Part shown: positions 42,714 to 64,000 of the stretch, piece by piece
Layout: each line of letters opens with the position of its first letter
Numbering within the stretch: the stretch's first letter is position 1
From: Pseudomonadota bacterium
GTDB lineage: Bacteria; Pseudomonadota; Gammaproteobacteria; Burkholderiales; JAJZUU01
DNA length: 64,000 nt
Assembly: GCA_021848325.1 (NCBI GenBank)
Contig: JAJZUU010000004.1
Span: 8,720 to 72,719, forward strand
Direction: 5' to 3'
Program-made: the position numbers and the translations under genes
Notes under the pieces: model-generated
Databases searched by the model: none
What the model saw: the letters and a program-made list of their open reading frames with translations, nothing else
What the model was told of the DNA's origin: nothing

Positions 42714-44978
42714 ATGCGCATTTTGTTCACTTTGTTGTTGTTATTCCCGCTCTACGCCCAGGCCCTGGTGGAAGGCGATCTGCTGGCGCCGGAACAGGCA
42801 TTCAAGCTTTCCGCGCGCCTGGTGGACGCGGGCCATGTGGAAGTCCGCTACCAGATCGCCGATGGCTACTACCTCTACCGCAGCAAGTTCAAATTCTCGG
42901 CCGAGCCTGCCGGGGTATCGTTGGGAACGCCCCAGTTTCCGGCGGGAAAGGTGAAGCAGGACGACTTTTTCGGCGCGGTGGAAACCTATCGCCATGAAGT
43001 CAAGATCGACCTCCCGCTCCAGGTAAGCGACAGTTCCGTCCGCACCATAACCCTCAAGGCCACCGCCCAGGGCTGCGCCGACGCCGGCGTGTGCTATCCG
43101 CCGGTGCAGGAGACGGCGCAGTTGAAGCTGCCGGCCCCGCCTGCCGCCAACGCCGGCCCGGGCGGCCAGGCCGCCCTAACCTCGCTCGGCGACGACGGGG
43201 CGAGCGCAGGGGGCGGGTTTCTGCCCCCCGACCTGGCCTTCGGCCTGAAGGTGTCGGTCAAGGACGGGGACACCCTGGCGGCGGACTTCAAGCCCGCCGC
43301 AAGCTACTACCTGTACCGGGACAAGATCCATTTTTCCCTGCGGGACAGCGCGGGAATCAGCATCGCCAAGGTCGCCCTGCCCGCCGGCGACGTCGAGACC
43401 GACCCGACCTTCGGCAAGCTCGTGGTGTACCACCAGCCGTTCCGCGCGGAGATCGGCCTGAAACGCGATGACCCGGCGCGCACCGGGCTGACGCTGTTGG
43501 CGAGCTACCAGGGATGCAGCGAGAAAGGGGTGTGCTATCCCCCCATCGAAAAGGCGTTTACCCTTACCCTGCCCCAGTTGTCTCAGACGTCTCAGGCGGC
43601 CCCGGCGGTGCCCGCTTCCGCCCAGCCGCAGGCCGGGCCCGTCCTCGCCCAGCAACAGCCCGCCGCGGCAGAGTCATCCGAATCGTCAAAGATCGCCGCC
43701 CTGTTCAAGGGAGGAAACTTCGCGCTGATCGTGGCCTTTTTCTTCGGTGCGGGGCTGTTGCTCGCCTTCACCCCCTGCGTGTTCCCCATGATTCCGATCC
43801 TGTCCGGGATCATCGCCGGCCAGGGCCGCCACCTCACCAAGAGCCGCTCCCTGGTGCTCTCGCTGTCCTATGTGCTCGGCATGGCGATCACCTATGCCGC
43901 CGCCGGCGTGGCCGCCGGGCTGTCGGGCACGCTGCTGTCGGCCGCCATGCAGAATCCCTGGGTATTGGGCGGGTTCGCCCTGGTGTTCGTGGCCCTGTCC
44001 CTGTCCATGTTCGGGTTTTATGAACTGCAGTTGCCCAATTTTTTGCAAAGCAAGTTCTCCAACGCCAGCAACCGGATGAAGGGAGGCAGCACGGTGGGCG
44101 TGCTGGTCATGGGCGCACTGTCCGCCCTGATCGTAGGGCCCTGCGTGGCGGCTCCGCTGGCCGGCGCCCTGCTCTATATCGGCCAGACCCACAACGTCTG
44201 GCTGGGCGGCTCGGCCCTGTTCGCCATGGCGTTGGGCATGGGCGTTCCACTGATCCTGGTGGGGGTGTCCGCGGGGGCCCTGCTGCCCAAGGCAGGAGCG
44301 TGGATGAATGCGGTGAAGGGTTTCTTCGGGGTACTTCTGCTTGGGGTGGCCATCTGGCTCATTTCCCCGGTAATCGCGCCGTTGGCCGTAATGCTGCTAT
44401 GGGCCTCCCTGTTGATCATTTCCGCCATGTACCTGCGGGCCCTCGATCCGTTGCCCCCCGCGGCCCACGGTTTTGCCAGGCTGTGGAAGGGCGTGGGGGT
44501 GATCGCCCTGGTTGCGGGGGTGGCGCTGCTGATCGGCGCCTTGAGCGGGGGGCGCGACGTGCTGCAACCGCTGGCCGGTCTGCGCGCTTCAGCCAGTACC
44601 CAGGGTGCCGCCGCGGCGCCTTTGAAGTTTGAACGGGTGGGCAGTGTGGCCGAGCTGGAGCAGCGTCTGGCCGCTGCCCGCGGCCGCTACGTCATGCTTG
44701 ATTTCTACGCCGACTGGTGCGTCTCCTGCAAGGAATTCGAACGCTTCACCTTTGCCGACCCGCGGGTGGCGGAGAGGCTTAAGGACGCGGTACTGCTCCA
44801 GGTCGACGTGACCGCCGACAACGCCGGGGACAAGGCCTTGCTGCAGAAATTCGGGCTGTTCGGGCCGCCGGGGATCATTTTCTTTGACCGGAACGGGCGC
44901 GAGATCAAGTCGGCCCGCACCATCGGCTATACTCCCCCGGAACGGTTTCTGACCACCCTTGATACGGCGTTCCGTTAG
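42714..44978 (+). CDS. dsbD: thiol:disulfide interchange protein DsbD with a duplicated N-terminal alpha domain
   Basis: 754 aa. Two tandem DsbD-alpha-like domains (each with YYLYR and GC.....CYPP), a central 8-TM beta domain ([18 protein letters not shown]), and a C-terminal thioredoxin gamma domain ([13 protein letters not shown]). Confidence 0.88.
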
Positions 44979-50593: not shown

Positions 50594-50857
50594 AAAATGA
50601 ATTATATTATTGATTTAACAATGTTTTATTTAAAATTGCGGTGCGTATTTTTAGTCTAGCTACCTATTTAGCTACCCATATTGGGAATGGTAGATTTTCG
50701 ACCTGCATGATGTGGACTACACCTCTGTAGGATTTTACCGCAGCCGCCACGTTGCTTGAACCGATTTGCGCTGACACTTGAGCTTTTTTACTCAAAAGTC
50801 AGTAATTTAGACGACACTTGATGCCTGTGGAGCCTCGTAAATACTAGCCTTATGGAA

Positions 50858-52688
50858 ATCGGCATAGGGGGCGGCCATTATAGGCCGCGCCCCTGCCACA
50901 CCACCCGGCATGCGGGTCCGCACCGGGCGGTTCGAGAAGTTGAGGTCATGAGAGGCGGGGTACACCCAGATGATCGAAGTAGGCAATGGTCAGCACCCGT
51001 TTGATGTCGCCATCGCTGTTGCGCCACCAACTCCGCGAGTTTCCTGCTACCCGCTGCGCTACAGCCTCGGATGCGCCGAGCCTACGCAGTTCCCTGTGTA
51101 TGGTTGATCCGTGCTTCCAGTGCTTGAGATGGATCGCCCGGAGCCGGTGCCTCAACCATTCGTCCAGCGTGAGCCAGACTCGTGGCGTTTGCGCCAGCCC
51201 GAAATAGGCTTTCCCTCCCAAGAGGTAAGGCCGTAGTCGTTCGATGACCTCCGCCATGCTGCGTCCGCCCGAGCGCCGGGTCAGTTCTCGCGCCCGTTGC
51301 TTGAACGTCGCCAGCGCTTTAGCTGCCACGCCCCGTCTGACCTCGTCCCGATAGAACCAGAAGCTGTAGCCCAAGAACTTGCGTCCTCGGATGCTCGCTA
51401 CCGCGCTCTTGGTCTCATTGACCTTGAGCTGGAGCTTGTCATAGCACTGCCGCAGCATGGCCATTACTCGCTCACCCGCCCGCCGACTGCGCACATACAC
51501 GTTGCAGTCATCGGCGTAGCGCGCAAAGCAATGGCCCCGCCGTTCCAATTCCTTATCCACTTCGTCCAGCAGAACATTGGCCAGCAGCGGCGACAGCGGG
51601 CCGCCTTGCGGTGTCCCCTGATACCGCTCTTGCACCACGCCATCGCTCATGATCCCGCTGTTCAGGTACGCCCGTATCAGCCGAATCACTCCGGTATCCG
51701 GGATGCGCCTGCGCAGGCGGTCGATGAGAATGTCGTGATTGACCCGGTCAAAGAACTTCTCCAGGTCAACATCAACCACGATCCGCCGACCCGACTTCAC
51801 GTACGCCTGCGCGGCCAAGACCGCATCACGCGCCCGCCGTCCGGGCCGGAAACCGTAGCTGTGTTCGCTGAATGTGGGATCAAGTATCGGTTGCAGTACT
51901 TGCAGCAGTGCCTGCTGGTTCAACCGATCCGTCACCGTCGGAATGCCCAGCTCGCGCTCGCCTCCGTCCGGCTTCGGTATCGTCACCCGTCGTACCGGAC
52001 TGGGCCGGTACATCCCCCGCAGCAGTTGTTCTCGTAGCGCTGGCCATGTGGTGACGAGTTGCCGGGCGGTCTGGTCTATGTCCAGTCCGTCCACGCCCGC
52101 CGCTCCCTTGTTGGCCCGCACGCGCTTGAATGCCTGCTGCAGGTTCTCTCTCGTCAGCGCCGCAGCGAGCAGCGCCGACCCCGTGCTCTCGGTGTCTTGT
52201 CGCGGGCTGTTCGCTTCGTCGCTGGCAGGATCGCGCCCGGCTTCACCGTGCGTTACGCCCACCCGCTCCGCGGGTGCGGACTTCTGACGCGTTGCGTTCA
52301 ACATCGACATGGCCTTAAACACTTCTCCTCGTTCGGCCCTTCGCTCCATCTTGGCAGTTACTACGGCCTCGGCTGACTCCTCGCTCCGTGTTTCCACGTC
52401 GGCCTTTCAGCCATCAGGCGAGGTCTCCCCGGGTAAGAACGCATTCCTTCGCTGCACAACCGCCGGATTTACGCCGCTCCGCCTTGATCACGAGAGCTTC
52501 GCGGAATCATGCCCGCTCGCCCTGCTCGGCAACGCCTTCTATCCGATTCTTGTTCATCGGCTCGCAACTTCGCTCCACGCTTCCTCCCCACATTCGGTCG
52601 CCCTCATGCAGTTGCGCTTCGCTTCGTTCGCTGTGATCAACTTACGGCGGGACTTCCACCCGCAAGAATGCGCCCGTGCCGGGCGCAC
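50858..52688 (-). mobile_element. ORF-containing bacterial group II intron, compact (about 1.83 kb), class C-like; 3' boundary approximate
   Basis: The minus strand begins GTGCGCCCGGCACGGG at 52688 (GUGYG consensus). A domain V-like 34-nt helix lies at 50901-50933 (ACCGCCCGG/UGCG..CGCA/UG bulge/CCGGGUGGU), 12 nt after the RT stop. A domain VI-like helix with bulged UA lies at ~50860-50898. The RT/maturase ORF sits in domain IV. Confidence 0.8.
50946..52310 (-). CDS. group II intron reverse transcriptase/maturase (no endonuclease domain)
   Basis: RT domains including FARYADDCNVYV (YADD). The maturase/X domain follows, and the protein ends without an HNH/En module. ATG at 52310 preferred; the track ORF begins at a GTG at 52397. 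Confidence 0.85.
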   Translation of the reverse strand: MSMLNATRQKSAPAERVGVTHGEAGRDPASDEANSPRQDTESTGSALLAAALTRENLQQAFKRVRANKGAAGVDGLDIDQTARQLVTTWPALREQLLRGMYRPSPVRRVTIPKPDGGERELGIPTVTDRLNQQALLQVLQPILDPTFSEHSYGFRPGRRARDAVLAAQAYVKSGRRIVVDVDLEKFFDRVNHDILIDRLRRRIPDTGVIRLIRAYLNSGIMSDGVVQERYQGTPQGGPLSPLLANVLLDEVDKELERRGHCFARYADDCNVYVRSRRAGERVMAMLRQCYDKLQLKVNETKSAVASIRGRKFLGYSFWFYRDEVRRGVAAKALATFKQRARELTRRSGGRSMAEVIERLRPYLLGGKAYFGLAQTPRVWLTLDEWLRHRLRAIHLKHWKHGSTIHRELRRLGASEAVAQRVAGNSRSWWRNSDGDIKRVLTIAYFDHLGVPRLS

Positions 52689-52716
52689 ATAAACAACCCC
52701 GCAGCAAGCTGCGGGG
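52689..52716 (-). terminator. Rho-independent terminator-like hairpin immediately 5' of the intron insertion point
   Basis: The minus strand reads CCCCGCAG-CTTG-CTGCGGGG (52716-52697), followed by TTGTTTAT, then the intron GTGCG. It lies downstream of the minus-strand ArsR-SHOCT-methyltransferase unit. Confidence 0.6.
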
Positions 52717-52931
52717 TATTCGGGTTGAATGGGGTTATTTTTACGCCGTAAGCGGCGGGGAATCGCACCCAAAGAAATTAAACTGCGTAAATACGTTGGC
52801 TTGGATAATTTTCCACACCAAGGGGCTCGTGCGCTATACCACCATGTTCATTTGGCCTCGGGGACGCGCTCAAGTACCTCGGCTTCATTGAGGGCATTGA
52901 TTTCAATGCTCATCGGCCTCACCATTAAATA

Positions 52932-53045
52932 CTAAGATAAATCCCGCATCTTTTTCACCATGTCCATCATCATCGGGTTGGAACAACTGCCTTGTTCGGC
53001 CTGCGATTCGCTGCTCTCTTTGGTGTCTTGGTTTTTCGGTTCCAT
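52932..53045 (-). CDS. hypothetical 37-aa Met-rich peptide (below track cut-off)
   Basis: AAGGAG Shine-Dalgarno 7 nt before the ATG at 53045. Translation is MEPKNQDTKESSESQAEQGSCSNPMMMDMVKKMRDLS. No homology recognised. Confidence 0.3.
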   Translation of the reverse strand: MEPKNQDTKESSESQAEQGSCSNPMMMDMVKKMRDLS

Positions 53046-53210: not shown

Positions 53211-53723
53211 CTAGGTCTGCTCCGGGGACATTCGAAGCTCGGTGCGCGGCCCTCTGGGCTGAGCCAGAACAGGCGTCTCTTCGCGCGCAATGGGATACCA
53301 ATTGACGATGGCGAGGCGCCCGGCGGGGGCCAGGACGGCAGCGATCTCGCGTGCCAATGCCGTCTTGTCCGGTGCGCCGTGGAAGATGTTGGCGATCAGG
53401 ACATAGTCCACCGGCGCGCCAATCAGACGGCTCAACTCCATCGCATTACCAAGCAGCCAGCCACAGTTCACCATCCCGTCACAAGCGGCTTTCGCTTGTT
53501 CCAGCATCGCTGGATCAAGGTCGAATCCGATGACGCGACCCGGGCCAAGCTGCCGGGCAATGGCGGCGGTGAAATAACCGTCCCCACAACCCAGGTCAAC
53601 CACCGTCATTTCTGGCTCAATGCGCAAAGCCTTGACGACGCCATCCGGATCGGGCCACAAGGCGCGCCACCAGTTCTGGTCCGGCATTACCGTGGCCGGG
53701 AATAATCGGTCTTGAAGCATCAT
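53211..53723 (-). CDS. class I SAM-dependent methyltransferase, apparently truncated by an in-frame TAG (the frame continues to 53103)
   Basis: VVDLGCGDGYF SAM motif and a Methyltransf_11/25-like core. After the TAG at 53208-53210 the same frame reads AVVEPAGFELEALVELPPYHYGAIFMKAARHERPGE, which looks like the normal C-terminus of this family. Confidence 0.8.
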   Translation of the reverse strand: MMLQDRLFPATVMPDQNWWRALWPDPDGVVKALRIEPEMTVVDLGCGDGYFTAAIARQLGPGRVIGFDLDPAMLEQAKAACDGMVNCGWLLGNAMELSRLIGAPVDYVLIANIFHGAPDKTALAREIAAVLAPAGRLAIVNWYPIAREETPVLAQPRGPRTELRMSPEQT

Positions 53724-53741: not shown

Positions 53742-53972
53742 TTATTCCAAATCTTTTTTTATCTGCTGATATTCCTCGCGGCTGATTTCCCCACGGGCGT
53801 AGCGCTGGTCAAGAAGTTCACGTGCGTTTTCTTCTCTCTTGTGCGTTCCATGGTTGCCGCACATGGGCAAGCCGCCGCTGCGGAAGAGGAAGACCAGTAT
53901 CACGATGAGAAAGATCAGCGGAAATATCCACATCAACGGAAACATGCCCCACGGTCCATAGTTCCACATCAT
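53742..53972 (-). CDS. SHOCT-domain small membrane protein
   Basis: 76 aa. One TM segment, then ELLDQRYARGEISREEYQQIKKDL (SHOCT). Strong AAGGAGG SD. Its ATG shares one base with the ArsR stop (TAATG). Confidence 0.7.
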   Translation of the reverse strand: MMWNYGPWGMFPLMWIFPLIFLIVILVFLFRSGGLPMCGNHGTHKREENARELLDQRYARGEISREEYQQIKKDLE

Positions 53973-54346
53973 TAAGTTACCTCCTTGGTTTTCGCCGCCG
54001 CCGAATTGTGCCCAATTGGACGGCTATGCTGTTTGACCTCGCTTGCGACCGCGGCTGGGTGTGCGTCCAGCCAATGTTTCAAGTCGTGCAGAATGCGCAA
54101 CAACTCGGTGTCGGCGAGGCAGTAATAGATAAAAGCTCCGCGACGTTTGGCCCGGACGAATCCCGCCTCACGCAACACGCGCAGGTGGAATGACACATTG
54201 GTTTGCCCCAAGCCCGTTGCATTGATGATGTCTGTCACCGGACGGCATTCCAGTCCTAAACCACACAAGATGCGTAACCGGTTCGGTTCTCCGAGCACTT
54301 TGAGTGCCGGAATAATCTGCTCTTGATCGTGTTCGGGAAATTTCAT
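53972..54346 (-). CDS. ArsR/SmtB-family metalloregulator
   Basis: 124 aa. LKVLGEPNRLRILCGL....PVTDIINATGLGQTNVSFHLRVLREAGFV winged helix-turn-helix. Confidence 0.85.
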   Translation of the reverse strand: MKFPEHDQEQIIPALKVLGEPNRLRILCGLGLECRPVTDIINATGLGQTNVSFHLRVLREAGFVRAKRRGAFIYYCLADTELLRILHDLKHWLDAHPAAVASEVKQHSRPIGHNSAAAKTKEVT

Positions 54347-54366: not shown

Positions 54367-54390
54367 TTATATGAGTGGAAACTCATATAA
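54367..54390. promoter_or_regulatory. candidate ArsR/SmtB operator (10-4-10 perfect palindrome)
   Basis: TTATATGAGT-GGAA-ACTCATATAA lies 21-44 nt upstream of the ArsR ATG (54346), inside an AT-rich promoter-like stretch. Confidence 0.5.
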
Positions 54391-54631
54391 TACCCGACTC
54401 GGTGTCAAACGTATCAGTGTGTTCAAGAGCTGCTGACTTAGCGCTGTGGATGGGGGGTCTGGGAGCGGATGGGTTCCGCACTCTGAGGGGGTCATGCGTC
54501 TCGTGCCTTCCGTATGACGTTACCCAGGTGTGCCTTCCTTCCCTATCGTCAAAGGGCCCCGAATACTTCTTGCACTGCCAGCTACGCTCAGTTTATCATT
54601 ATCGCAATCGTTTAAATGATGAGCGCTCGCG

Positions 54632-55012
54632 ATGCCCACCGCCGAAATTATTACCAGCCCAACCTGTAACGTCACCTGCTTCGACCAGGAGAAGGTGACC
54701 CGGATCAAGTCCGATCTGGCGAAGGATGAGCAGTTACTGCCGCAACTGGCCGAGCTGTACAAGCTGCTGGGCAACGTCACGCGCCTGAAGATACTGCTCT
54801 CGCTCGCCCATGGCGAGTTGTGCGTCTGCGACGTGTCCCATGTGCTGGGACTGACCGTCGCCGCCACCTCACACCAGCTCAAGCTGCTGCGCAGCCAGGG
54901 CTGGCTCACCATGCGCAACGACGGCAAGATGGTCTATTACCAGGTGCACAGCGAGGGCCTGCTCAGGGCACTCAAGGGCGACTTGCGTCTCTTGGAGAAG
55001 CGCCTGGCCTGA
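54632..55012 (+). CDS. ArsR/SmtB-family regulator, CadC-like (Cd/Pb/Zn type)
   Basis: 126 aa. N-terminal Cys pair (SPTCNVTC) and alpha3 ELCVCDV metal site. LKLLGNVTRLKILLSL...SHQLKLLR HTH. Confidence 0.85.
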   Translation: MPTAEIITSPTCNVTCFDQEKVTRIKSDLAKDEQLLPQLAELYKLLGNVTRLKILLSLAHGELCVCDVSHVLGLTVAATSHQLKLLRSQGWLTMRNDGKMVYYQVHSEGLLRALKGDLRLLEKRLA

Positions 55013-55026
55013 CCCGGGTGAAAGCC

Positions 55027-57192
55027 ATGAGTGCGGACATGGGCAAAAAGACGCTTGAGTTGGAAGTCGAAGGACTCTGCTGCACGGAGTGCGCAGTAGC
55101 CGTCGAAAAAACCCTCTCCCACCGGGCAGGCGTGGATCAGGTGAAGATCCTCTCGGCCGCCGAGAAGGTGCGACTCAACTACGACGAGAGCAAGACCAGC
55201 AAAGAGGAACTGGCGGATTCGATTGCGGCCTTGGGCTACAAGGTCCGGTACAAGGGCGAGGACGTTGCGGCCACGGCCAAAGCAGGAGGGTCGCGAGTGA
55301 GCCGCGAGGTCGTTCGATTCGGGTTCGTGGCCCTGGTTGCGCTCATCGCGTTGCTCGAAATCGGCGGGGAGTATCTGGGCTGGTTCGAGAAGGCGCAGGA
55401 GAGGATTCCGGTGCCGGTTCTGCTCGCGACCATAGCCATCGGAGGCTACCCCATCTTCAAGCGCGCCGTGCTCGGCGCGATCAGCAAACAGATCAACGTC
55501 GACTCCATGATGAGCGTGGGGATTCTGAGCGCCGCCGCCATCGGCCAATATACTTCCTCCATGCTCATCGTTTTCTTCATGGGGATCGCGCACTTCCTGG
55601 AGGAATTCACCACCAGAAAATCCCGGAAAGCCATTCAAGAGCTGGTCAAGTTCTCCCCCAAAACGGCCCACGTCAAGTTAAACGGGCAAGAGCGGGAGAT
55701 CGCCGTGGAGGCATTACGGGTCGGCGACATCGTTGCGGTGCGCCCGGGCGAACAAATCCCTGCGGACGGCGCAGTCGTAGCCGGTGTGAGTTCCGTGAAT
55801 CAGGCCTCCATCACCGGCGAGAGCATGCCTGTGGCGAAACAGGCGGGAAGCGAGGTCTTCGCCGCGACGATGAACGAACGCGGCTATCTGGAAGTGAAGG
55901 TGAGCCGAATCGGCGCCGACACGACCTTTGGCAAGATTATCAAGCTCGTCGAAGAGGCCGAAGCGGTCAAGGCGCCTGTGCAGAAGTTCGCCGACCGGTT
56001 TACCACCTATTTCCTGCCCGCTGCGATCGGGGTTGCCGTCCTCACTTATCTCATTTCTGGCGAGCTCATCTACGCGATCTCGGTCCTCGTCGCCGCATGC
56101 CCGTGCGCCGTGGGATTGGCGACGCCGCTGTCCGTGATTGCCAGTGTCGGAAGCGGCGCCAGGAGAGGACTCCTGATCAAGGGCGGTCTTTACCTCGAAC
56201 GGCTGGCAAAGGTCGATTGCGTGGTCATGGATAAAACCGGAACCGTGACGCTTGGCAAGCCCCAGGTCACCGACGTGGTGTCGTTGAACGGATTACCGGC
56301 GGAGGGTCTGCTCAAGCACGCGGCGAGCCTCGAAAAAAATTCCGAGCATCCGATCGCCTCGGCGATCCTGTCGTATGCCGGGGCGCAAAACGTTCTTGCG
56401 CCGGATGCCGAGCACTTCGAATACACCGTAGGGCGAGGGCTTCGTGGCATCGTGGAAGGGAAAGCGGTTGTGCTGGGGAACGTTCGCTTGCTGCAAGGCT
56501 TGAGGATATCGCTTTCCCCGCACGCCGAATCGGTCATCAGCGCGCTCGGAAACGAGGGCAAGACCGCTCTCCTGTTGGCCATCAACGGCGTGGCCGAGGG
56601 AATTGTCGGCGTCGCGGACGTGATGCGCGAGGAAGTGCCCGCGGTGATCGAAGCACTGCGGCAGCTCGGTATCAAGCGTCTCATGCTGCTGACCGGCGAC
56701 AACGAGCGGGTGGCGGCAGCAATCGCCAACAAGCTCGGCATCACGGATTACCGATCCGGCCTGTTGCCGGAAGACAAGATTGAAATCGTCAAAGCACTAC
56801 AGCGCGCGGGGTTAACGGTGGCTATGGTTGGCGACGGCGTCAACGACGCGCCTGCCTTGGCGCAAGCCGACGTGGGGATCGCCATGGGCGTGGTGGGCAG
56901 CGACGTCGCGTTGGAGGCTGCCCATGTGGCACTGATGCGAGACGATTGGAGCCAGATTCCACAGGCTATCCAGGTGGGCCGCCGGACCTACCGGGTGATT
57001 CGGCAGAATATTTTTCTCGGCATCACCTGGGACATTGTCACGATGGGGCTTGCCTCGGTGGGGATTATCGGCCCCGTCCTGGCCGCAGCAACCGAGGTGG
57101 TCCCGGATGTGTTCGTATCACTCAACTCGGCCCGGCTTCTCAAAGCACCCGAAAGACTGTTCAGTAGAACGGCAGTTGCCGATGGATCCTAA
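55027..57192 (+). CDS. heavy-metal translocating P1B-type ATPase
   Basis: ATG at 55027 gives 721 aa. N-terminal HMA domain with GLCCTECA, TGES, TM CPC (VAACPCAVGLATP), DKTGT, SEHPIA, GDGVNDAP. Confidence 0.9.
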   Translation: MSADMGKKTLELEVEGLCCTECAVAVEKTLSHRAGVDQVKILSAAEKVRLNYDESKTSKEELADSIAALGYKVRYKGEDVAATAKAGGSRVSREVVRFGFVALVALIALLEIGGEYLGWFEKAQERIPVPVLLATIAIGGYPIFKRAVLGAISKQINVDSMMSVGILSAAAIGQYTSSMLIVFFMGIAHFLEEFTTRKSRKAIQELVKFSPKTAHVKLNGQEREIAVEALRVGDIVAVRPGEQIPADGAVVAGVSSVNQASITGESMPVAKQAGSEVFAATMNERGYLEVKVSRIGADTTFGKIIKLVEEAEAVKAPVQKFADRFTTYFLPAAIGVAVLTYLISGELIYAISVLVAACPCAVGLATPLSVIASVGSGARRGLLIKGGLYLERLAKVDCVVMDKTGTVTLGKPQVTDVVSLNGLPAEGLLKHAASLEKNSEHPIASAILSYAGAQNVLAPDAEHFEYTVGRGLRGIVEGKAVVLGNVRLLQGLRISLSPHAESVISALGNEGKTALLLAINGVAEGIVGVADVMREEVPAVIEALRQLGIKRLMLLTGDNERVAAAIANKLGITDYRSGLLPEDKIEIVKALQRAGLTVAMVGDGVNDAPALAQADVGIAMGVVGSDVALEAAHVALMRDDWSQIPQAIQVGRRTYRVIRQNIFLGITWDIVTMGLASVGIIGPVLAAATEVVPDVFVSLNSARLLKAPERLFSRTAVADGS

Positions 57193-57221
57193 GCTGCTGG
57201 GCTCGTCACCGGAGCAAGAAC

Positions 57222-57743
57222 ATGAAAGGAGATATGGAAATGAAGAAATCAATCAAGACCGTTACGCGAAGAACCACATCAAGCAGTACCACCAGGAAGC
57301 GCGGATTCTGGATTGCAGGCGCACTCGCGTTAGGCGCTGCACTTGCGACGGGGACGGCGCTATTGGCCGGCGGCGGAGTCGCCAACGCTGGCTTACCCGA
57401 CCTGCTGGGCAAGGCGCAGCCGTCGCTGCCCAAGGGAGCGTTGCAGGTGCAAGACCTGGAGGCCGATCCAAAAGGCTATACCGGCAAGATTCTCGTGCGC
57501 GGCGTCGTCGCGAAAGTTTCTCCCAATGATCCACAGCTCTTCGCATTGATCGACTCGCGCGAGGCCCGTGTCTGCCAGGACCTGCATTGCGCCAAGTTCT
57601 ACCTGCCGATCAAGGTCAAGGATACGAATCTCAAACCCTGGGATGAGGTGAACGTGCGCGGGATCATGACGGAGGACACGGACAAAAAAATGGTTTATCT
57701 CCGCGCCGACTCGGTAGAGAACCTGGGCTCGATCAAGAAATGA
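57222..57743 (+). CDS. hypothetical exported protein with C-x4-C/His motif
   Basis: 173 aa. Basic N-region and Ala/Gly-rich hydrophobic segment, then a ~110-aa beta-rich-looking domain containing RVCQDLHC. Its stop overlaps the next ATG (ATGA). No family recognised. Confidence 0.55.
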   Translation: MKGDMEMKKSIKTVTRRTTSSSTTRKRGFWIAGALALGAALATGTALLAGGGVANAGLPDLLGKAQPSLPKGALQVQDLEADPKGYTGKILVRGVVAKVSPNDPQLFALIDSREARVCQDLHCAKFYLPIKVKDTNLKPWDEVNVRGIMTEDTDKKMVYLRADSVENLGSIKK

Positions 57744-58903
57744 ACCTCGGCAAACTGGTGTGGCGCAACCTGCTGCGCCGGCGCGGGCGCTTTGTCTTCA
57801 CCTTGGCGGGCGTGAGCGTGGGCATGGCGGCGTTCGTCGCGCTTATGACCATTGGGCAAGGCCTGACCACGGAAATCAAGAAGCAGGCGCAAGGACTTGG
57901 CGCCAATCTGGTGGTCACGCCCAAGGGCTGGTGCGCCTATGAACAAATCTCGGTGCTCACCGGAGAGCAACTGCCCGAGGCGATCCCCATGTCCGAGCTG
58001 GAGAAAATTCGAGCCGTGCCGGGTGTCAAGAGCGCCGTTCCCTACCTCAACGAGAAGACTGCGTTCCGCAACCAGCCGGTGCCGGTAATCGGCGTGTGGC
58101 CTGAAGAGATGCGCGCGTTGCAGAAGTGGAGTATCGATTCCGGGCGCTACTTCAACTCTCTGGATGAGCGTGGGATCGTGGTCGGGTCGGCAATCGCCAA
58201 ACAGTTCAAGCTCCGGCCGGGCGACGAATTCACCGTGCGCGGCAAGACGATTCCCGTGATAGGTATTCTTCGGGAAGCGGGCAGCAAGGACGACATCGCC
58301 ACCTTCATTCCGCTCGCTCTTGCGCAGCAAATTTATGACGTGCAGGACAAGGTGTCGTTCATCGCCGTCCAGGTGAGTGACCTCGAAAAAATCGAGGCAA
58401 CTAGCCTTAAAATCCAGGAAGTTGCCAATGTCGCCGTCGTCACCGACAAGCAACTGCTGTCTTCGGTCCTGTCCATCGTGGGTTCGGTCGGTGCGGCCAT
58501 GCAGGCGGTGGCGGCAGTCGGCGTACTTGCTGCGGCGTTCGGTATCGTCAATACCCTGCTCACCGCAGTGCATGAACGCCGGCGCGAGATCGGCATTCTG
58601 CAGGCGCTCGGCAGCACCCGACGTACATTGTTCCTGGCATTCATGCTCGAATCCGGGCTCTACGGCTTGCTCGGCGGGATTCTGGGCGTGACGATTGGCG
58701 TTCTCGCTGCTTACCTGTTCGGCTCTTACCTCACCGACAATGCGTTCACAGCGTCACTGCATCAGTCACAGACGGTGGCGATCGACTATGGGACCATCCT
58801 TCTCACTTTGGGCTTTTCCGTGTGTCTCGCACTCTTCGCTGGTCTTTACCCGGCGTACCGGGCGACCAAGCTCTCTCCGGTGGAGGCCATGCGCTATGTC
58901 TAA
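57740..58903 (+). CDS. FtsX/MacB-type ABC transporter permease
   Basis: 387 aa. TM1, then a ~210-aa periplasmic domain, then three C-terminal TM segments (FtsX domain). RRREIGILQALGSTR linker motif. Confidence 0.85.
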   Translation: MNLGKLVWRNLLRRRGRFVFTLAGVSVGMAAFVALMTIGQGLTTEIKKQAQGLGANLVVTPKGWCAYEQISVLTGEQLPEAIPMSELEKIRAVPGVKSAVPYLNEKTAFRNQPVPVIGVWPEEMRALQKWSIDSGRYFNSLDERGIVVGSAIAKQFKLRPGDEFTVRGKTIPVIGILREAGSKDDIATFIPLALAQQIYDVQDKVSFIAVQVSDLEKIEATSLKIQEVANVAVVTDKQLLSSVLSIVGSVGAAMQAVAAVGVLAAAFGIVNTLLTAVHERRREIGILQALGSTRRTLFLAFMLESGLYGLLGGILGVTIGVLAAYLFGSYLTDNAFTASLHQSQTVAIDYGTILLTLGFSVCLALFAGLYPAYRATKLSPVEAMRYV

Positions 58904-59585
58904 CACTGTCATCGAACTGGAGAAAGTGAGCAAAACTTACGGCAGTGGCGCCGCTGAGGCGAAGGCGGTCTCGGAGGTGTCGATGACCGTGGAGCGCGGC
59001 GGCTGGGTCGCGATCATGGGGCCTTCCGGGCATGGCAAAAGTACGCTGCTGCAACTCATCGGCGGCCTGGACCGCGCCAGCGCCGGCCGCATTGTGCTGG
59101 ACGGCGCGGAGCTTGGCACCCTCGATGCCGCGGAACTGGCGGCTGTGCGCGGCAAAAAAATCGGTTTCGTGTTCCAGTTCTTCAACCTGATGCCGCACCT
59201 TACGGCGCTGGAAAATGTCGAGATCGCGCTGTGGCTCGGCGGCGGAACCCACAACAACGGGCGCGCCATGGAGCTGCTGGAACGCTTTGGCTTGGGAGAC
59301 AAGGCCCACCACCTACCGAGCATGCTCTCCGGTGGCCAGCAGCAGCGCGTTGCGATTGCGCGCGCCTTGGCCAACGAGCCCGATATTCTTCTCATGGACG
59401 AGCCCACCGGCAACCTGGACTCCGGCTCCGAGGTGGAGCTGCTGACCTTACTCGGAGAGCTAAACAAGGCAGGCAAAACACTGCTGATGGTCACCCACAA
59501 CCCGGCGGTGGCGCAATGTGCCGAACGCGTGCTGCAAGTCAAAGACGGCAGGATCGTTGGGGATGCACGGAATGGAAAACATTAG
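58896..59585 (+). CDS. ABC transporter ATP-binding protein (LolD/MacB ATPase family)
   Basis: 229 aa. Walker A GPSGHGKST, Q-loop, signature LSGGQQQRVAIARAL, Walker B ILLMDEPTGNLD. 8-nt overlap with the permease. Confidence 0.9.
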   Translation: MSNTVIELEKVSKTYGSGAAEAKAVSEVSMTVERGGWVAIMGPSGHGKSTLLQLIGGLDRASAGRIVLDGAELGTLDAAELAAVRGKKIGFVFQFFNLMPHLTALENVEIALWLGGGTHNNGRAMELLERFGLGDKAHHLPSMLSGGQQQRVAIARALANEPDILLMDEPTGNLDSGSEVELLTLLGELNKAGKTLLMVTHNPAVAQCAERVLQVKDGRIVGDARNGKH

Positions 59586-60078
59586 CATGCTTTACAACGG
59601 ACTACGTTGGGCTGTGTTGGTCATCGCCCTGAGCGCTCCTTTAAGTACGCAGGCGGTAGCCCCACCAGTGCCCACGTTCACGACCATGGAAGGGAAGCAG
59701 ATCCGTTTGAGCGATCTGCGCGGCAAGATCGTACTCATCCATTTCTGGGCGACGAGCTGCGGGATTTGCCTTGTGGAAATGCCTGATCTCATCCAAACCT
59801 ATCAGCAGTTTCGCAAGCGGGGATTCGAAGTGATCGCGGTGGCCATGCACTACGACCAGCCCGGCGACATCAAGGCGTATGTCCGCAAACAAGGGCTGCC
59901 GTTTCCTGTCGTCTTCGACCAGGAAGGCAAGCTCGCGAGTGAGTTCAACCAGGTCGGCGTGACGCCGACGACGTTCCTCATCGACGCGTCGGGCAGACGG
60001 ATATCGAAGACGGTGGGGATCATCGACTTCGGCAAGCTGCGTGCCTTCCTGAAATCGGCGGACGTGGAAGGACGCTAA
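59572..60078 (+). CDS. TlpA-like periplasmic thioredoxin (start 59563, 59572 or 59587)
   Basis: Signal peptide (LRWAVLVIALSAPLSTQA), then GKIVLIHFWATSCGICLVEMP. Confidence 0.8.
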   Translation: MENISMLYNGLRWAVLVIALSAPLSTQAVAPPVPTFTTMEGKQIRLSDLRGKIVLIHFWATSCGICLVEMPDLIQTYQQFRKRGFEVIAVAMHYDQPGDIKAYVRKQGLPFPVVFDQEGKLASEFNQVGVTPTTFLIDASGRRISKTVGIIDFGKLRAFLKSADVEGR

Positions 60079-60095
60079 TCCTCTGGAAATCAATT

Positions 60096-61523
60096 ATGAA
60101 AAATCACTTCGTTCCATTCGCCGGCTTTTTTCTCCTCGCCGCCGCGCTTGCCGGATGCGCAAGTTTCCAATCGCATCCCATCGTGCCAGCCGATACGGCG
60201 GCTGCATTTGAAGCACGCACGCTACATAGCGCGGGTCTCAAACAGTTCCTGGAACGTAATCTCGGGCGAGAAGCCATTCCATGGCCATCCGGCTCATTAA
60301 ATCTTGAGACGCTCACTCTTGCGGCCTTTTATTACAGCCCCGATCTGGATGTGGAGCGCGCCAAATGGGGCGTGGCGGAAGCCGGGATGATCACGGCCGG
60401 TGCACGCCCCAACCCTAACCTCGGCATCTCCGCAAAGCACAATAACGATGCGCCTAACGGCGTCTCGCCCTGGACCCTGGGCTGGAATCTGGATATCACG
60501 ATCGAAACCGCCGGCAAGCGGGGGTATCGCTTAGAACATGCCCAACACCTGTCCGAGGCGGCCCGTTTCAACATTGCGAGTGTCGCGTGGCAAGTGCGAA
60601 GCCGGGTACGAGCTAATCTGGTAGAGCTTTATGGGGCGCGCGAATCCGAGGCGCTGCTGGGCCAGGAGGAAGCAGTTCAGAAACACCTGGTCGGTCTGCT
60701 TGAGCGGCGCCTCGCGTTAGGCGACATTTCCCTGCCGATCGTCACGCAAGCCCACATCGCTCTGGAGCAAACGCGATTGGCCCTGCGGGACGCGCAAATG
60801 CGCAGCAGCGAAGCGCTTGCACGTCTGGCTGCGGCGATCGGGCTTCCGGCCAGCGCCTTGGAGGGGGTCAGCCTATCGCTTGAGGATGTCACCCGCATTC
60901 CCGCAGATGCCAATCTCACCTCCTCCGATGTGCGCCGCCAAGCCCTCTTGAATCGGGCCGACATTTTGGCCGCACTCGCCGAATACGAGGCAAGCCAGTC
61001 CGCCCTGCGCACCGAGATCGCCAAACAGTATCCGGACATCGGTTTGGGGCCGGGCTACCTCTGGGACGCGGGCCAAGTCAAATGGTCCTTGGGATTGTCC
61101 CTGGTGCCGCCGATCTTGAACCGCAACGAGGGCCCCATCGCCGAGACAGAGGCGCGCCGCAAGCAAGCTGCCGCGACCTTTATTGCGCTGCAGGCAAAAG
61201 TGATCGGCGAAATTGACCTGGCACTGAGGAGTTATCGGGCCGCCCTGGAGAAAACCACTGCCGCGGAAACCGTGCTCGCCTCCCAGAAGCGATACCAACA
61301 ATCCGTCGGCGCCCAATTCAACGCCGGGGAAGCGGATCGGCTGTCGCTCTTAAGCGCCCGGCTGGAGCTTTCGGCGGCCGAGCTTGCGCGGCTCCAAGCC
61401 GTGATGACCGCACAGCAGGCATTGGGACGGCTGGAAGACGCGATGCAACGTCCGGCCGCGTCCGAGCCGCCCCTTTCGGCAATGATCGAGAAAACCCCAA
61501 GAACAGAGGAAAACAAGCCATGA
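60096..61523 (+). CDS. outer-membrane efflux lipoprotein (TolC/CzcC/NodT family)
   Basis: 475 aa. Lipobox LAGC. Two OEP repeats with coiled segments. Confidence 0.85.
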   Translation: MKNHFVPFAGFFLLAAALAGCASFQSHPIVPADTAAAFEARTLHSAGLKQFLERNLGREAIPWPSGSLNLETLTLAAFYYSPDLDVERAKWGVAEAGMITAGARPNPNLGISAKHNNDAPNGVSPWTLGWNLDITIETAGKRGYRLEHAQHLSEAARFNIASVAWQVRSRVRANLVELYGARESEALLGQEEAVQKHLVGLLERRLALGDISLPIVTQAHIALEQTRLALRDAQMRSSEALARLAAAIGLPASALEGVSLSLEDVTRIPADANLTSSDVRRQALLNRADILAALAEYEASQSALRTEIAKQYPDIGLGPGYLWDAGQVKWSLGLSLVPPILNRNEGPIAETEARRKQAAATFIALQAKVIGEIDLALRSYRAALEKTTAAETVLASQKRYQQSVGAQFNAGEADRLSLLSARLELSAAELARLQAVMTAQQALGRLEDAMQRPAASEPPLSAMIEKTPRTEENKP

Positions 61524-62602
61524 AGCTCAAGCCTATGGTCGCAATGACCGCCGTGGCGGCCATCCTTGCCTTCTCGGCCTGGCATCTGACGCAAGGGCGG
61601 GAAGAGGCCGCCGAATCGAAGCCCGAGCAACCAGCGGAGGCGCCTGCGTCATCCGGGAAAGCCGGCGAGCAGGTCGTCGTGCTCGACCAGGCCGCAGAAA
61701 TGAAGAGCGGAGTGGCCGCCGCGCCGCTTCAGCCTATTTCCTATCACCGGCAGGTTCAGGCTTATGGAGCGGTTCTGCCCCTCCAGGGGCTCATCGATCT
61801 GCGCAATAGTATTGAGACGGCGCGCTCCCAACGGGAGAAGGCGGCGGCAATGCTCGAAACATCCCGCAGGGAATATGAACGGCTCAAGGTGTTGCATGCC
61901 GATGACCGAAACGTATCCGACAAAGCCCTGCAAACTGCGGAGGCTGCGTGGAAAACCGACGAAGCGAACGTGCGTGCCGCCCGTGCGGCGTTGAACGCGA
62001 TCGAGCAAAATGCGCGGCAGCAGTGGGGCGGGGTGCTCGCCAAGGCAGCTTCGGATGGATCGCCGCTGTTCAAGCGTCTGGTAGAACAGCAGGAGGTGCT
62101 GCTCCAGATTACGGCGCCTTCCGGGGTACACATTCCGCAACCGCCCCGAACCGCCGGGATTCGCCTGGCTGACGAAGCGTTCGGCACCGCCACCCTGATT
62201 TCCCCCGCCCCGCGCACCGATGCACGCCTTCAGGGAACGAGCTACTTCTATTCCTCCGCCGCACCCAGCCTGCTGCCCGGCATGAACATCACGGCGTACC
62301 TTCCGTACGGAGAAAAAACTCAAGGCGTGGTCATCCCCGCTTCCGCCGTCGTTTGGTGGCAGGGAAAGGCCTGGATTTATGTTCAAGAGGGTGCGCAGCA
62401 CTACGTCCGCCAGGAAATTCCCACGGACAACCCCATCGAGGATGGCTGGTTCGCATCCAGGGCGTTCAAGGCGGGTGAAAAAATCGTCGTGACCGGTGCG
62501 CAGATGCTGCTTTCACAGGAATTCCGCTCGCAAATCCAGTCGGGAGAGGAAGGTGAAAGTGGCGAAAAAGGCGAGGCGGGCGAGAAAGGCAAAAAAGAAT
62601 GA
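61520..62602 (+). CDS. efflux RND periplasmic adaptor (membrane fusion protein)
   Basis: 360 aa. Signal anchor, coiled-coil hairpin region, beta-barrel C-terminal domain. ATGA overlaps on both sides. Gly/Glu/Lys-rich tail. Confidence 0.8.
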   Translation: MKLKPMVAMTAVAAILAFSAWHLTQGREEAAESKPEQPAEAPASSGKAGEQVVVLDQAAEMKSGVAAAPLQPISYHRQVQAYGAVLPLQGLIDLRNSIETARSQREKAAAMLETSRREYERLKVLHADDRNVSDKALQTAEAAWKTDEANVRAARAALNAIEQNARQQWGGVLAKAASDGSPLFKRLVEQQEVLLQITAPSGVHIPQPPRTAGIRLADEAFGTATLISPAPRTDARLQGTSYFYSSAAPSLLPGMNITAYLPYGEKTQGVVIPASAVVWWQGKAWIYVQEGAQHYVRQEIPTDNPIEDGWFASRAFKAGEKIVVTGAQMLLSQEFRSQIQSGEEGESGEKGEAGEKGKKE

Positions 62603-64000
62603 CGCACACCGACACCGGCATGCTCGCCGCAATCGTTCGTTTCTCGCTGCGCTTCCGGGGCGTGGTCATCGCCCTGGCCTGCATTGTTGCCGGATACGGG
62701 ATCTACACCCTGTCCGGCGCGAAGTATGACGTGTTTCCCGAATTCGCCCCGCCCCAAGTCGTAATACAGACCGAAGCTGTCGGCTTGTCGCCGGAGCAGG
62801 TGGAAGTCCTCGTCACCCAGCCGATCGAAAACGCCGTCAACGGAACGCCGGGCGTCGAATCGATGCGCTCCAGCTCGATTCAGGGTCTGTCGGTCATCAC
62901 CGCGGTATTCAAAGTCAGCAGCGATATCTATCGCGACCGGCAACTCCTCGCCGAGCGGCTGGCCCCCCTGGCGTCCCAATTGCCCCAGGGCGTTCAGGCT
63001 CCCGCCATGTCGGCTTTGACCTCGTCCACGAGCGTCGTCATGGCAGTCGGTCTCACTTCCGACAGGCGCTCCATGATGGAACTGCGGACCATCGCCGATT
63101 GGACGTTGAAGCCTCGTCTGCTGGCGGTGCCGGGCGTGGCGAAGGTGGCCGTATTCGGTGGCGAGGTCAAGCAACTGCAAATCCAGGTCAGGCCCGAGCG
63201 GCTGGCCAAATACAAGCTTTCCGTCGAGGATGTCCTCGTCGCAGCGCGCCAGGCAACGGGCGTGCGAGGCGCGGGGTTCATCGACAACGCAAATCAGCGC
63301 ATCGTCTTGCAAAGCGAGGGGCAAGCGCTCGCCGCCGAGCAGATCGCCCGGACCGTCCTCATCCACCAGGATGGCGGCAGCGTCACATTGGGCGACGTTG
63401 CGCGCGTTGGCGCCGCTCCCGCTCCCCCGGTGGGCGCTGCGGCCGTCATGGGCAAGCCAGCCGTGCAGTTGGTCATATCGGATCAGTACGGCGCGAATAC
63501 GCTGGAAGTGACGCAGCGGATCGAGCAGGCACTGGTTGACATGCGGCCCGGCCTGGCGGCGCAGGGTGTCGGGCTGGACACAGTTTTCCGCCCAGCCGAT
63601 TTCATCCAGATCGCCACCCGCAACATGCAGTCCTCCCTCATGATCGGCGCCGTGCTGGTAGTCGCCGTGCTGGCGTTGTTCCTGTTCAACCTGCGCACCG
63701 CGGCCATTTCGCTCCTCGCGATTCCCCTATCCTTGCTTACCGCGTCGACAGTCCTGGATTATCTCGGGTTCAGCCTCAATACCATGACACTGGGCGGGCT
63801 AGCCATCGCCATCGGCTTGCTGGTCGACGACGCGGTCATCGTGGTGGAAAACATTTATCGGCGACTGCAGGAGAACCGTCATCTGGAAGCGCCCCGCGCC
63901 CCCCTGACCGTGATACTCGGGGCCGCCTTGGAAGTGCGTAGCGCCGTGGTCTATGCCACTTTCGCCATCGCCATGGTGTTCGTGCCGGTGCTCACCATGT
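62599..64000 (+). CDS. RND efflux permease, CusA/CzcA (heavy-metal efflux) family; 3' end beyond the window
   Basis: Not in the track (no stop in the window). ATG at 62599, translating as [28 protein letters not shown]...[15 protein letters not shown]...[26 protein letters not shown] overlap with the adaptor. Confidence 0.88.

Follow-up and report, generated by a model that had tools for sequence, protein, structure and literature searches.

Can a run of genes that encodes three different exporters behind one metal sensor be read as a single machine, or is it an assembly of units with separate pasts? The question is raised by nine genes at the end of a 64,000-nt stretch (the window) of contig JAJZUU010000004.1, from a bacterium of the order Burkholderiales, all of which lie on the + strand and run from position 54632 to the window end (64000). 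An earlier note had proposed that they form one composite export operon in which a P-type ATPase, a MacB-type ATP-binding cassette (ABC) transporter and a resistance-nodulation-division (RND) pump act together under a single Cd/Zn/Pb-type sensor. By comparing gene order, junction sequences and predicted folds across related contigs and genome loci (labelled L001, L002 and so on), we came to consider it moderately probable instead that the array is a metal-resistance operon of chimeric make-up, horizontally mobile and built of separable units, into which the RND pump was grafted in one lineage. The components of the array belong to known superfamilies, and the part that deserves follow-up is the conserved unit of P1B-type ATPase, ABC engine and a family-less exported protein, the product of the third gene, which we call X.

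Nine tightly packed genes

The array opens with a gene for a 126-aa CadC-type ArsR/SmtB repressor (cadC, 54632-55012), followed by those for a 721-aa P1B-type ATPase (55027, or 55039, to 57192), for X (57222 or, better, 57240 to 57743; 167 aa when counted from M7), for a 387-aa ABC permease of Type VII, that is, of the MacB/FtsX fold (57740-58903), for a 229-aa ABC ATPase of the MacB/LolD/FtsE type according to Pfam and NCBIfam (58896-59585), and for a predicted periplasmic thiol-disulfide oxidoreductase resembling TlpA and ResA (tlpA, starting at 59563, 59572 or 59587 and ending at 60078). Behind these lie genes for a 475-aa outer-membrane factor (OMF) lipoprotein matching Pfam OEP (60096-61523), for a divergent 360-aa periplasmic adaptor, or membrane fusion protein (MFP, 61520-62602), recognized by its position and by sub-threshold matches, and for an RND permease that starts at 62599 and is cut by the window end, running beyond 64000.

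Neighbouring genes either overlap or stand no more than 47 nt apart. Between cadC and the ATPase gene lie 14 nt, or 26 nt with the second ATG (55039) as the ATPase start, which is the one that gene callers took on the identical contig L001. X follows the ATPase gene after 29 nt for the 57222 start and 47 nt for the 57240 start, and the latter is more probably the true one, because homologues begin with MKKSIK and an AAGGAG lies 8 nt before that ATG. X and the permease share an ATGA overlap, the permease and ABC ATPase genes overlap by 8 nt, and the ABC ATPase gene either overlaps tlpA by 14-23 nt or is separated from it by 1 nt, depending on the tlpA start chosen. A 17-nt gap follows tlpA, and the OMF-MFP and MFP-RND junctions are both ATGA overlaps. 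The ORF listing from all six reading frames, the translations and the junction sequences thus uphold the picture of nine co-directional, tightly packed genes drawn in the earlier note, and Pfam and NCBIfam agree with the gene identities given there, the MFP being without a Pfam match. Most of the junction lengths in the note also stand, except that its 29-nt gap before the exported protein is more likely one of 47 nt. Its remark that the array continues past the window is true in a weak sense: on the near-identical contig L002 the RND gene is 1036 codons long and is followed by a 223-nt gap, an ORF for an exported 135-aa Cys/His-rich protein with the motif PALCHAHCQ and no Pfam match (L002 12019-12426), and an IS110 transposase gene (L002 13316-14338).

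Conservation and mobility of the cassette

Gene order was compared among 25 species-level loci (one genome per GTDB species carrying relatives of X) and among additional contigs carrying individual homologues, the nine window proteins being mapped by tblastn. X, the FtsX-type permease and the ABC ATPase are encoded in this order in 24 of the 25 species-level loci, the exception being Paraburkholderia gardini, where X stands alone next to a transposase, a case that we treated as a remnant. A tlpA-like gene follows the ABC ATPase gene in every species-level locus with enough sequence, and a cadC-like gene lies upstream in 22 of the 25. After tlpA, a gene for a 146-151-aa protein with a DsbD_N domain (dsbD_N) is found in 16 of the 25, and where it is missing the place is taken by NMT1 and SCO1/SenC genes, by an MtrA-DUF4346 gene and a cation diffusion facilitator (CDF) transporter gene, or by another ArsR gene with a P1B ATPase gene. 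Homologues of the OMF-MFP-RND module follow tlpA in none of the 25 loci. We found the nine-gene order only in three metagenome contigs (L001-L003) that are 95-100% identical to the window, and the Tlp-OMF-MFP order also in a 1.9-kb fragment, L053 (Tlp 83% and OMF 91% identical). These near-identical copies and the single short fragment do not support a conserved nine-gene composite; they point to a rare, derived arrangement of recent origin on mobile elements, and the result comes close to a gene order unique to one strain, which the earlier note had itself named as evidence against its proposal.

The core of the cassette reaches much further. X, an FtsX-type permease of 387 aa (the gene call has 265 aa in L057), the ABC ATPase and the 8-nt overlap are kept in three distant contexts, and gene coordinates in L056 and L058 show this permease/ABC ATPase overlap to be conserved across phyla. 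In the WOR-3 locus L058, genes for ArsR, P1B ATPase, X, FtsX and ABC stand in that order; the ATPase there matches that of the window at 59% identity along the full length and shares its CCTEC, CPCAVGLATPLSVIASVGS, WD and TE/E..P motifs, the permease is 56% identical, and X is 45% identical over its oligonucleotide/oligosaccharide-binding (OB) domain. The X-FtsX-ABC trio of the Nitrospirae locus L056 lies beside genes for MerR, Thioredoxin_3, a further MerR, MerT and an HMA protein, and that of L057 beside MerR, a DUF4346 fragment and SHOCT. ATPase-X-FtsX-ABC thus appears to be an old syntenic unit or a widely transferred one. The functional link between P-type ATPase and MacB-type ABC engine suggested in the earlier note is strengthened by the recurrence of ArsR-P1B-X-FtsX-ABC in WOR-3 with the same unusual ATPase motifs, and cooperation of the two is well supported by this synteny. 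Our literature search found no paper on the cassette or on the ATPase-X-ABC unit, and there is no curated family model for the unit.

The cassette is carried by mobile elements, namely integrative and conjugative element (ICE) backbones (L001, L040), a Tn3 element on a Vibrio plasmid and an integrase-adjacent site (L008), and its GC content at third codon positions is lower than in the flanking chromosomal genes. As a search of a plasmid collection gave a single match (Vibrio campbellii pIFL1_1), the cassette seems to be rare on sequenced plasmids.

The junction with the RND module

An alignment of tlpA 3' ends located the graft junction in the 17-nt leader before the OMF gene (60079-60095, + strand). 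Homology with relatives that carry dsbD_N continues for 17 nt beyond the tlpA stop and breaks off at the start codon that comes next; the OMF ATG stands at the exact position of the dsbD_N ATG, and L053 has the identical junction. A comparison of the window with L001 revealed 0 differences over ~53.9-61.0 kb and then ~5% divergence from ~61000, a point within the OMF gene and away from gene boundaries, which marks a recombination breakpoint. Because divergence on its two sides differs in this way, the two parts of the array have separate histories.

Relatives of the RND module (L045-L052) are stand-alone OMF-MFP-RND units with MFP 37-55% and RND 57-71% identical to the window proteins; the MFP gene lies between those for OMF and RND in all of them, and array genes 1-6 are absent within 8-10 kb. 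Upstream of the unit, L049 has a divergent MerR regulator and a CDF transporter, and L048 a two-component system and a major facilitator superfamily (MFS) transporter. The full-length RND protein of L002 (1036 aa), of the AcrB family, scores 821 bits against ACR_tran, and together with the OMF and MFP encoded beside it makes up a tripartite RND pump of the general kind. Its best NCBIfam match is TIGR00914 (CusA/CzcA family), with the multidrug RND models scoring close. The MFP matches no Pfam family, including the CzcB-type ones, and TIGR01730 and TIGR00999 only below threshold. In transmembrane segment (TM) 4 of the RND protein we found the motif AIG-DDA-VEN. CzcA-type HME-RND pumps reportedly have the signature DFG-DGA-VEN at this position, and adjacent Asp-Asp is said to be typical of HAE1 multidrug pumps. 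On this motif we rejected orthology with CzcA, and a pump of the CzcA type is likewise not supported.

A conserved promoter and a CadC-type sensor

The 100 nt upstream of cadC are conserved across ~25 distinct loci, which share TTGCAC or TTGAC, a spacer of 17-18 nt, TATCAT, and a block CATT(a/t)TCG(c/a)AA..G..TAAATGA that overlaps TATCAT. The putative cadC promoter/operator of the window (54570-54621, + strand) has its -35 element TTGCAC at 54570-54575, an 18-nt spacer and its -10 element TATCAT at 54594-54599, the latter overlapped by the conserved block TCATTATCGCAATCGTTTAAATGA; in L026 and L029 the operator-like block forms a near-perfect palindrome, CATTTTCGAAAATG. Such a layout would be expected of an ArsR-type repressor that blocks its own operon. 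Consensus scans found promoter-like and terminator-like sites within the array to be no commoner than in shuffled sequence, but the same scan missed the conserved cadC promoter and was not used as evidence either way. No intergenic gap is long enough for a promoter plus a terminator. Since the junctions leave no room for promoters and the OMF gene kept only the 17-nt leader of dsbD_N, it is likely, and we would say so with reasonable confidence, that all nine genes are co-transcribed from the conserved site upstream of cadC, as the earlier note had predicted in proposing a single transcript.

The repressor matches HTH_5 (46 bits) and NF033788 (74.7 bits, cutoff 55), which gives it the winged-helix ArsR/SmtB fold, and among solved structures in the PDB it best matches Listeria Lmo1102 and S. 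aureus pI258 CadC. In the alignment, C12 and C16 fall on the N-terminal Cys pair of CadC and ELCVCD on the CVC motif, and the alpha3N cysteines (C12, C16, C64, C66) are invariant across 25 homologues of the cadC product. With these four residues and CadC proteins as the top solved-structure matches, the label of a CadC-like Cd/Pb/Zn sensor, already given in the earlier note, is justified on sequence grounds.

An unusual ATPase in a variable slot

The ATPase matches E1-E2_ATPase, Hydrolase and HMA as well as TIGR01525 (583 bits), and with its DKTGT, a CPC in TM4 and an N-terminal HMA domain carrying an unusual CCTEC (GLCCTECA) it belongs to the P1B type. P1B-2 ATPases (ZntA/CadA; Zn, Cd, Pb) have a conserved Lys in TM5 and an Asp in TM6, and P1B-1 ATPases (CopA; Cu+) have YN in TM5 and MxxSS in TM6. 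In a motif alignment, the window ATPase has WD in TM5 and TE..P in TM6 at the P1B-2 Lys/Asp positions, while a control, the PbrA-like ATPase of the Ralstonia locus L005, has the canonical residues, Lys in TM5 and Asp in TM6. Against CopA, WD of the window protein takes the place of YN, and TEVVP that of MALSS. On the absence of the P1B-2 residues we rejected a ZntA/CadA orthologue, and without YN and MxxSS the protein does not fit P1B-1. A standard Cd/Zn/Pb (P1B-2) pump is thus not supported, and from its motifs we assign the ATPase to a non-canonical P1B subtype.

The position between cadC and X behaves as a variable slot that holds this ATPase subtype (at 93% identity in several loci and at 73-75% in other ones), a CSC-type ATPase, an MtrA+DUF4346 protein, or nothing. 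The slot of Ralstonia pickettii and Burkholderia sp. SRS-46 has the CSC-type ATPase, which lacks the HMA domain (L005 7950-10004, L022 1624-3387; TM4 CSC, TM5 YN, TM6 AAAQAGPD), and in Ralstonia pickettii and relatives its gene is coupled to X through an ATGA overlap; judged by these motifs, it appears to be another unusual P1B subtype. The other alternative is a 386-aa fusion of MtrA (corrinoid-binding) with PterinBD-DUF4346 (L040 8788-9948, L039 1086-2246, L031 3601-4560; fragment in L057 10134-10322), whose gene recurs between cadC and X or after tlpA. Its domains hint at a corrinoid-dependent methyl transfer tied to metal handling; no paper on DUF4346 was found in the searchable literature. 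In two cassettes without an ATPase, 5' and 3' stubs of the ATPase gene lie in the cadC-X spacer (L036 2301-2470, L014 9947-10012), and because these stubs remain while X, ABC and TlpA are retained, the ATPase was lost there by deletion.

X as a thiol-bearing OB-fold protein

Neither X nor its distant relatives match a Pfam or NCBIfam family. An AlphaFold2 model of X reached a predicted local distance difference test (pLDDT) score of about 88 over residues 60-173 (blocks 87-94), and its Foldseek matches are OB folds, including tRNA-synthetase anticodon domains, RPA and E. coli YgiW, so that the model makes residues 60-173 an OB fold. At the N-terminus a hydrophobic segment comes after a long basic stretch and could be either an anchor or a signal peptide, and X would accordingly be an exported or membrane-tethered protein. 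Two cysteines, C118 and C123 (173-aa numbering), form a CxxxxC that is kept in 119/120, 142/149 and 117/117 relatives in three sets, the median being two cysteines per protein. Lipobox-like N-termini occur in 30 of the 149 distant cluster representatives, and others are anchor-like. X of the window has no lipobox, and we therefore rejected it as the lipoprotein cargo of a Lol-like system. A profile search of 1.84 billion cluster representatives returned 234 related clusters, and one seeded with a distant member returned 213 proteins in Nitrospirae, Nitrospinae, Deltaproteobacteria, WOR-3 and Planctomycetota; one distant relative weakly resembles the CcmE domain.

The ABC engine and its redoxin

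The permease consists of MacB_PCD (residues 19-227) and FtsX (residues 257-380), matches Spr0695, LolE, MacB, LolC and FtsX in the PDB, and has the four TMs, the large periplasmic domain between TM1 and TM2 and the cognate ATPase of a Type VII system. Identity to it is 75-97% in proteobacterial loci and 56-58% in Nitrospirae and WOR-3. Just after TM1 it carries VTPKGWCAYEQ(I/V)SVL, which contains C65, and the part VTPKGWCAYEQ is invariant even in WOR-3 and Nitrospirae. The permease falls short of a LolC/E equivalog (TIGR02212, 122 bits versus a cutoff of 362), and its gene neighbourhood does not fit a pump of the MacAB-TolC type, no MFP or OMF gene lying beside the trio in 24/24 species-level loci, in Nitrospirae or in WOR-3.

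The TlpA-like protein matches AhpC-TSA and Redoxin, and the ResA subfamily with 93 bits, below the cutoff of 170. It has an N-terminal hydrophobic signal and the active site CGIC, whose CxxC is invariant in 21 homologues. A full-length DsbD (DsbD_N, DsbD_TM and a thioredoxin domain) is encoded 10 kb upstream of the cassette (42714-44978, + strand), and this chromosomal DsbD is a possible source of electrons for the TlpA-like protein.

A proposed mechanism and its rivals

The usual account of bacterial metal resistance is built on P-type ATPases, CDF transporters and RND pumps, and to our knowledge MacB-fold ABC engines have no place in it. We suggest that a sigma-70-like promoter drives the CadC-type repressor, which thiophilic divalent metals of the Cd/Pb/Zn class would release, and that the P1B ATPase would then expel the thiophilic metal to the periplasmic face, where X could capture it on its CxxxxC thiols. 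The ABC engine, acting on X by mechanotransmission, would strip the metal or pass it on at the expense of ATP and so recycle X, with permease Cys65 perhaps taking part in the hand-over. The TlpA-like reductase, together with an nDsbD-like protein in most relatives, would keep periplasmic thiols reduced, and the chromosomal DsbD may supply the electrons here. In this lineage only, the OMF-MFP-RND pump would have replaced dsbD_N at its start codon, adding to the same transcript an exit from periplasm to outside that works with its own adaptor and channel. Characterized Type VII ABC systems (FtsEX-EnvC, LolCDE-LolA, MacAB-TolC and YbbAP-TesA among them) work through mechanotransmission on a partner in the periplasm that is dedicated to them (PMC12646458, PMC5985334, PMC7668044), and since every one of them has such a partner, X is the obvious candidate for this role.

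Beyond the chimeric origin of the array, P1B ATPase, X and MacB-fold ABC might constitute an unrecognized Type VII class for ATP-driven, second-stage periplasmic detoxification of soft metals that acts on thiol-bound metal, a proposal that we regard as possible but doubtful. The unit would then span Betaproteobacteria, Nitrospirae and WOR-3, with mobile elements adding thiol reductases and, here, the RND exit. Several points weigh against the account proposed above. The ligand signatures of P1B-1 and P1B-2 are both missing from the ATPase; the slot may hold other proteins and the ATPase has been deleted in some cassettes, so X-ABC can function without it; and TlpA is absent from the WOR-3 and Nitrospirae loci. 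The Cys pair of X could be a structural disulfide rather than a metal site, promoters may lie inside coding sequence, and we know of no route by which metal released by an adaptor-less Type VII ABC engine would leave the periplasm.

The three-tier relay of the earlier note, in which P-type ATPase, ABC and RND follow one another and one MFP and OMF serve both ABC and RND, has in its favour that all junctions are tight behind a single conserved promoter, that the OMF gene was grafted within the operon at the dsbD_N start, that the Tlp-OMF-MFP order persists in the diverged L053, and that MacB-type engines can use MFP/OMF partners (PMC5985334). Yet the ABC trio is without adjacent MFP or OMF genes in 24/24 species-level loci and across phyla, relatives of the MFP always lie between OMF and RND with no ABC nearby, and the nine-gene order is restricted to one narrow lineage, which makes the relay very unlikely. 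In particular, with an ABC trio that almost everywhere lacks OMF and MFP and an MFP clade that pairs with its own RND, nothing indicates that the ABC engine uses the adaptor or channel of the RND module, and the sharing of these parts is not supported. It is distinctly unlikely, at the other extreme, that the juxtaposition is fortuitous and the RND module, for instance a pump for organic compounds landed by island shuffling, has nothing to do with the cassette. The replacement is precise at the start codon with the leader kept, the arrangement persists across 5-17% sequence divergence, the best NCBIfam match is the CusA/CzcA family, and the L049 relative is preceded by MerR and a CDF metal transporter. 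What keeps this alternative in play is the HAE1-like rather than CzcA-like TM4 motif with its adjacent Asp-Asp, the closeness of the CusA/CzcA and multidrug scores, the two-component system and MFS transporter before the L048 relative, and the breakpoint inside the OMF gene.

A further rival leaves the RND module aside and takes X-FtsX-ABC-TlpA for a device of envelope repair or protection rather than one that moves metal. Such a device might strip soft metals from periplasmic or lipid-linked thiols, those of prolipoprotein cysteines for example, or release X from the membrane much as LolCDE does with lipoproteins and CcmABCD with CcmE. For Type VII ABC systems, extracting or activating a partner is the known mode of action, not transport through the membrane (PMC12646458, PMC7668044); the 30 of 149 distant representatives of X noted above are predicted lipoproteins and others are anchor-like, the thioredoxin-fold accessories vary (TlpA, SCO1, DsbD_N, Thioredoxin_3), and an LGT gene fragment adjoins the trio in L057. 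We nevertheless rate this rival as unlikely: its genes have long been closely tied to that of a P1B ATPase of a dedicated subtype, and thiols in X and the permease are the sole invariant candidates for ligands.

If the unit does handle thiol-bound Cd, Pb or Hg in the periplasm, this would be a new task for Type VII ABC systems, X would represent a new family of periplasmic metallochaperones, and there would be a reason why thiol reductases travel with metal-resistance islands. The cassette occurs in culturable carriers (Ralstonia pickettii, Dechloromonas hortensis MA-1, Burkholderia sp. SRS-46 and Vibrio campbellii IFL1), which makes these ideas directly testable, and the nine-gene array offers a clean case of how exact gene replacement on ICEs and transposons builds an operon.

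A second regulator and neighbouring elements

A second ArsR-family regulator (124 aa, 53972-54346, - strand; Pfam HTH_5 and HTH_20), unreported in the earlier note, is encoded divergently from the array in the same mobile block, common to L001 and L002, where it is 100% identical. It is 87-89% identical in L027-L029, in the same divergent position, and its gene is in two pieces in L040-L042. A repeat search located a perfect 10-4-10 palindrome, TTATATGAGT-N4-ACTCATATAA (54367-54390), 21 nt upstream of this gene, which is probably the regulator's own operator. Beside it lies a gene for a 170-aa S-adenosylmethionine-dependent methyltransferase (53211-53723, - strand), also divergent from the array.

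At the left edge of the low-GC island is a group II intron (50700-53000) with an RVT_1 plus GIIM maturase (reverse transcriptase ORF 50946-52397, - strand) and an Rfam match to group-II-D1D4-3 (109.6 bits, 52336-52607, - strand); the cassette of L041 likewise has an intron reverse transcriptase and the small methyltransferase just described at its flanks. The Ralstonia pickettii cassette adjoins a lead-resistance cluster resembling pbrR-pbrA-pbrBC (L005 13905-17903; MerR, P1B-2 ATPase and a fusion of PAP2 with signal peptidase II), with CzcE and CusF genes near. Recurring companions of the cassette are ArsR, an APC/HE-type P1B ATPase, DUF302, a small ORF, Zn_ribbon_TFIIB and SHOCT (L008 7833-12546, L036 5776-11468, L009 634-4317), and in L008 and L036 this set lies upstream of a separate CzcB-type OMF/MFP pair.

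Comparison with known systems

Among characterized systems, the engine is closest to the Type VII group (FtsEX-EnvC, LolCDE-LolA, MacAB-TolC, YbbAP-TesA), with which it shares a MacB_PCD plus FtsX permease, a separate LolD/FtsE/MacB-like ATPase, and a small periplasmic protein that is encoded directly upstream and conserved with the engine across phyla. It differs in that the partner is a CxxxxC OB-fold protein of no described family, that the unit sits in metal-resistance operons (ArsR/MerR, P1B ATPases), and that the conserved unit has no MacA-type adaptor. The first two genes recall CadC-CadA (pI258, Listeria) and ZntA-type systems in having an alpha3N four-cysteine repressor followed by a CPC plus HMA P1B ATPase, whereas the window ATPase has WD and TE in place of the TM5 Lys and TM6 Asp and CCTEC as its HMA motif, and the window promoter carries seven further genes. 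The last three genes share with CzcCBA and CusCBA the OMF-MFP-RND order with ATGA coupling, the CusA/CzcA best match and a relative beside MerR and CDF genes; they depart from these in the TM4 motif AIG-DDA-VEN, in an MFP without a Pfam CzcB-type match, and in the lack of CusF-like or CzcI/N/D accessories.

Two further comparisons concern the proposed hand-over. In CopA-CusF-CusCBA and NosDFY-NosL, metal is passed by a P1B ATPase or a chaperone to a periplasmic carrier, and the ABC part does periplasmic work and not membrane transport. The likeness of the window unit to these is one of concept (analogy only), as there is no sequence relationship and NosFY is of the ABC-2 type, not of the MacB fold. 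NosL has been reviewed (PMC8457098, PMC7558416). CcmABCDE with CcmG and DsbD, for its part, uses another ABC fold, and the window system differs from it in an X without the heme-binding His motif and in its metal-resistance context. What the two have in common is an ABC engine, an N-terminally anchored OB-fold carrier, a TlpA/DsbE-like reductase and a DsbD-derived electron supply.

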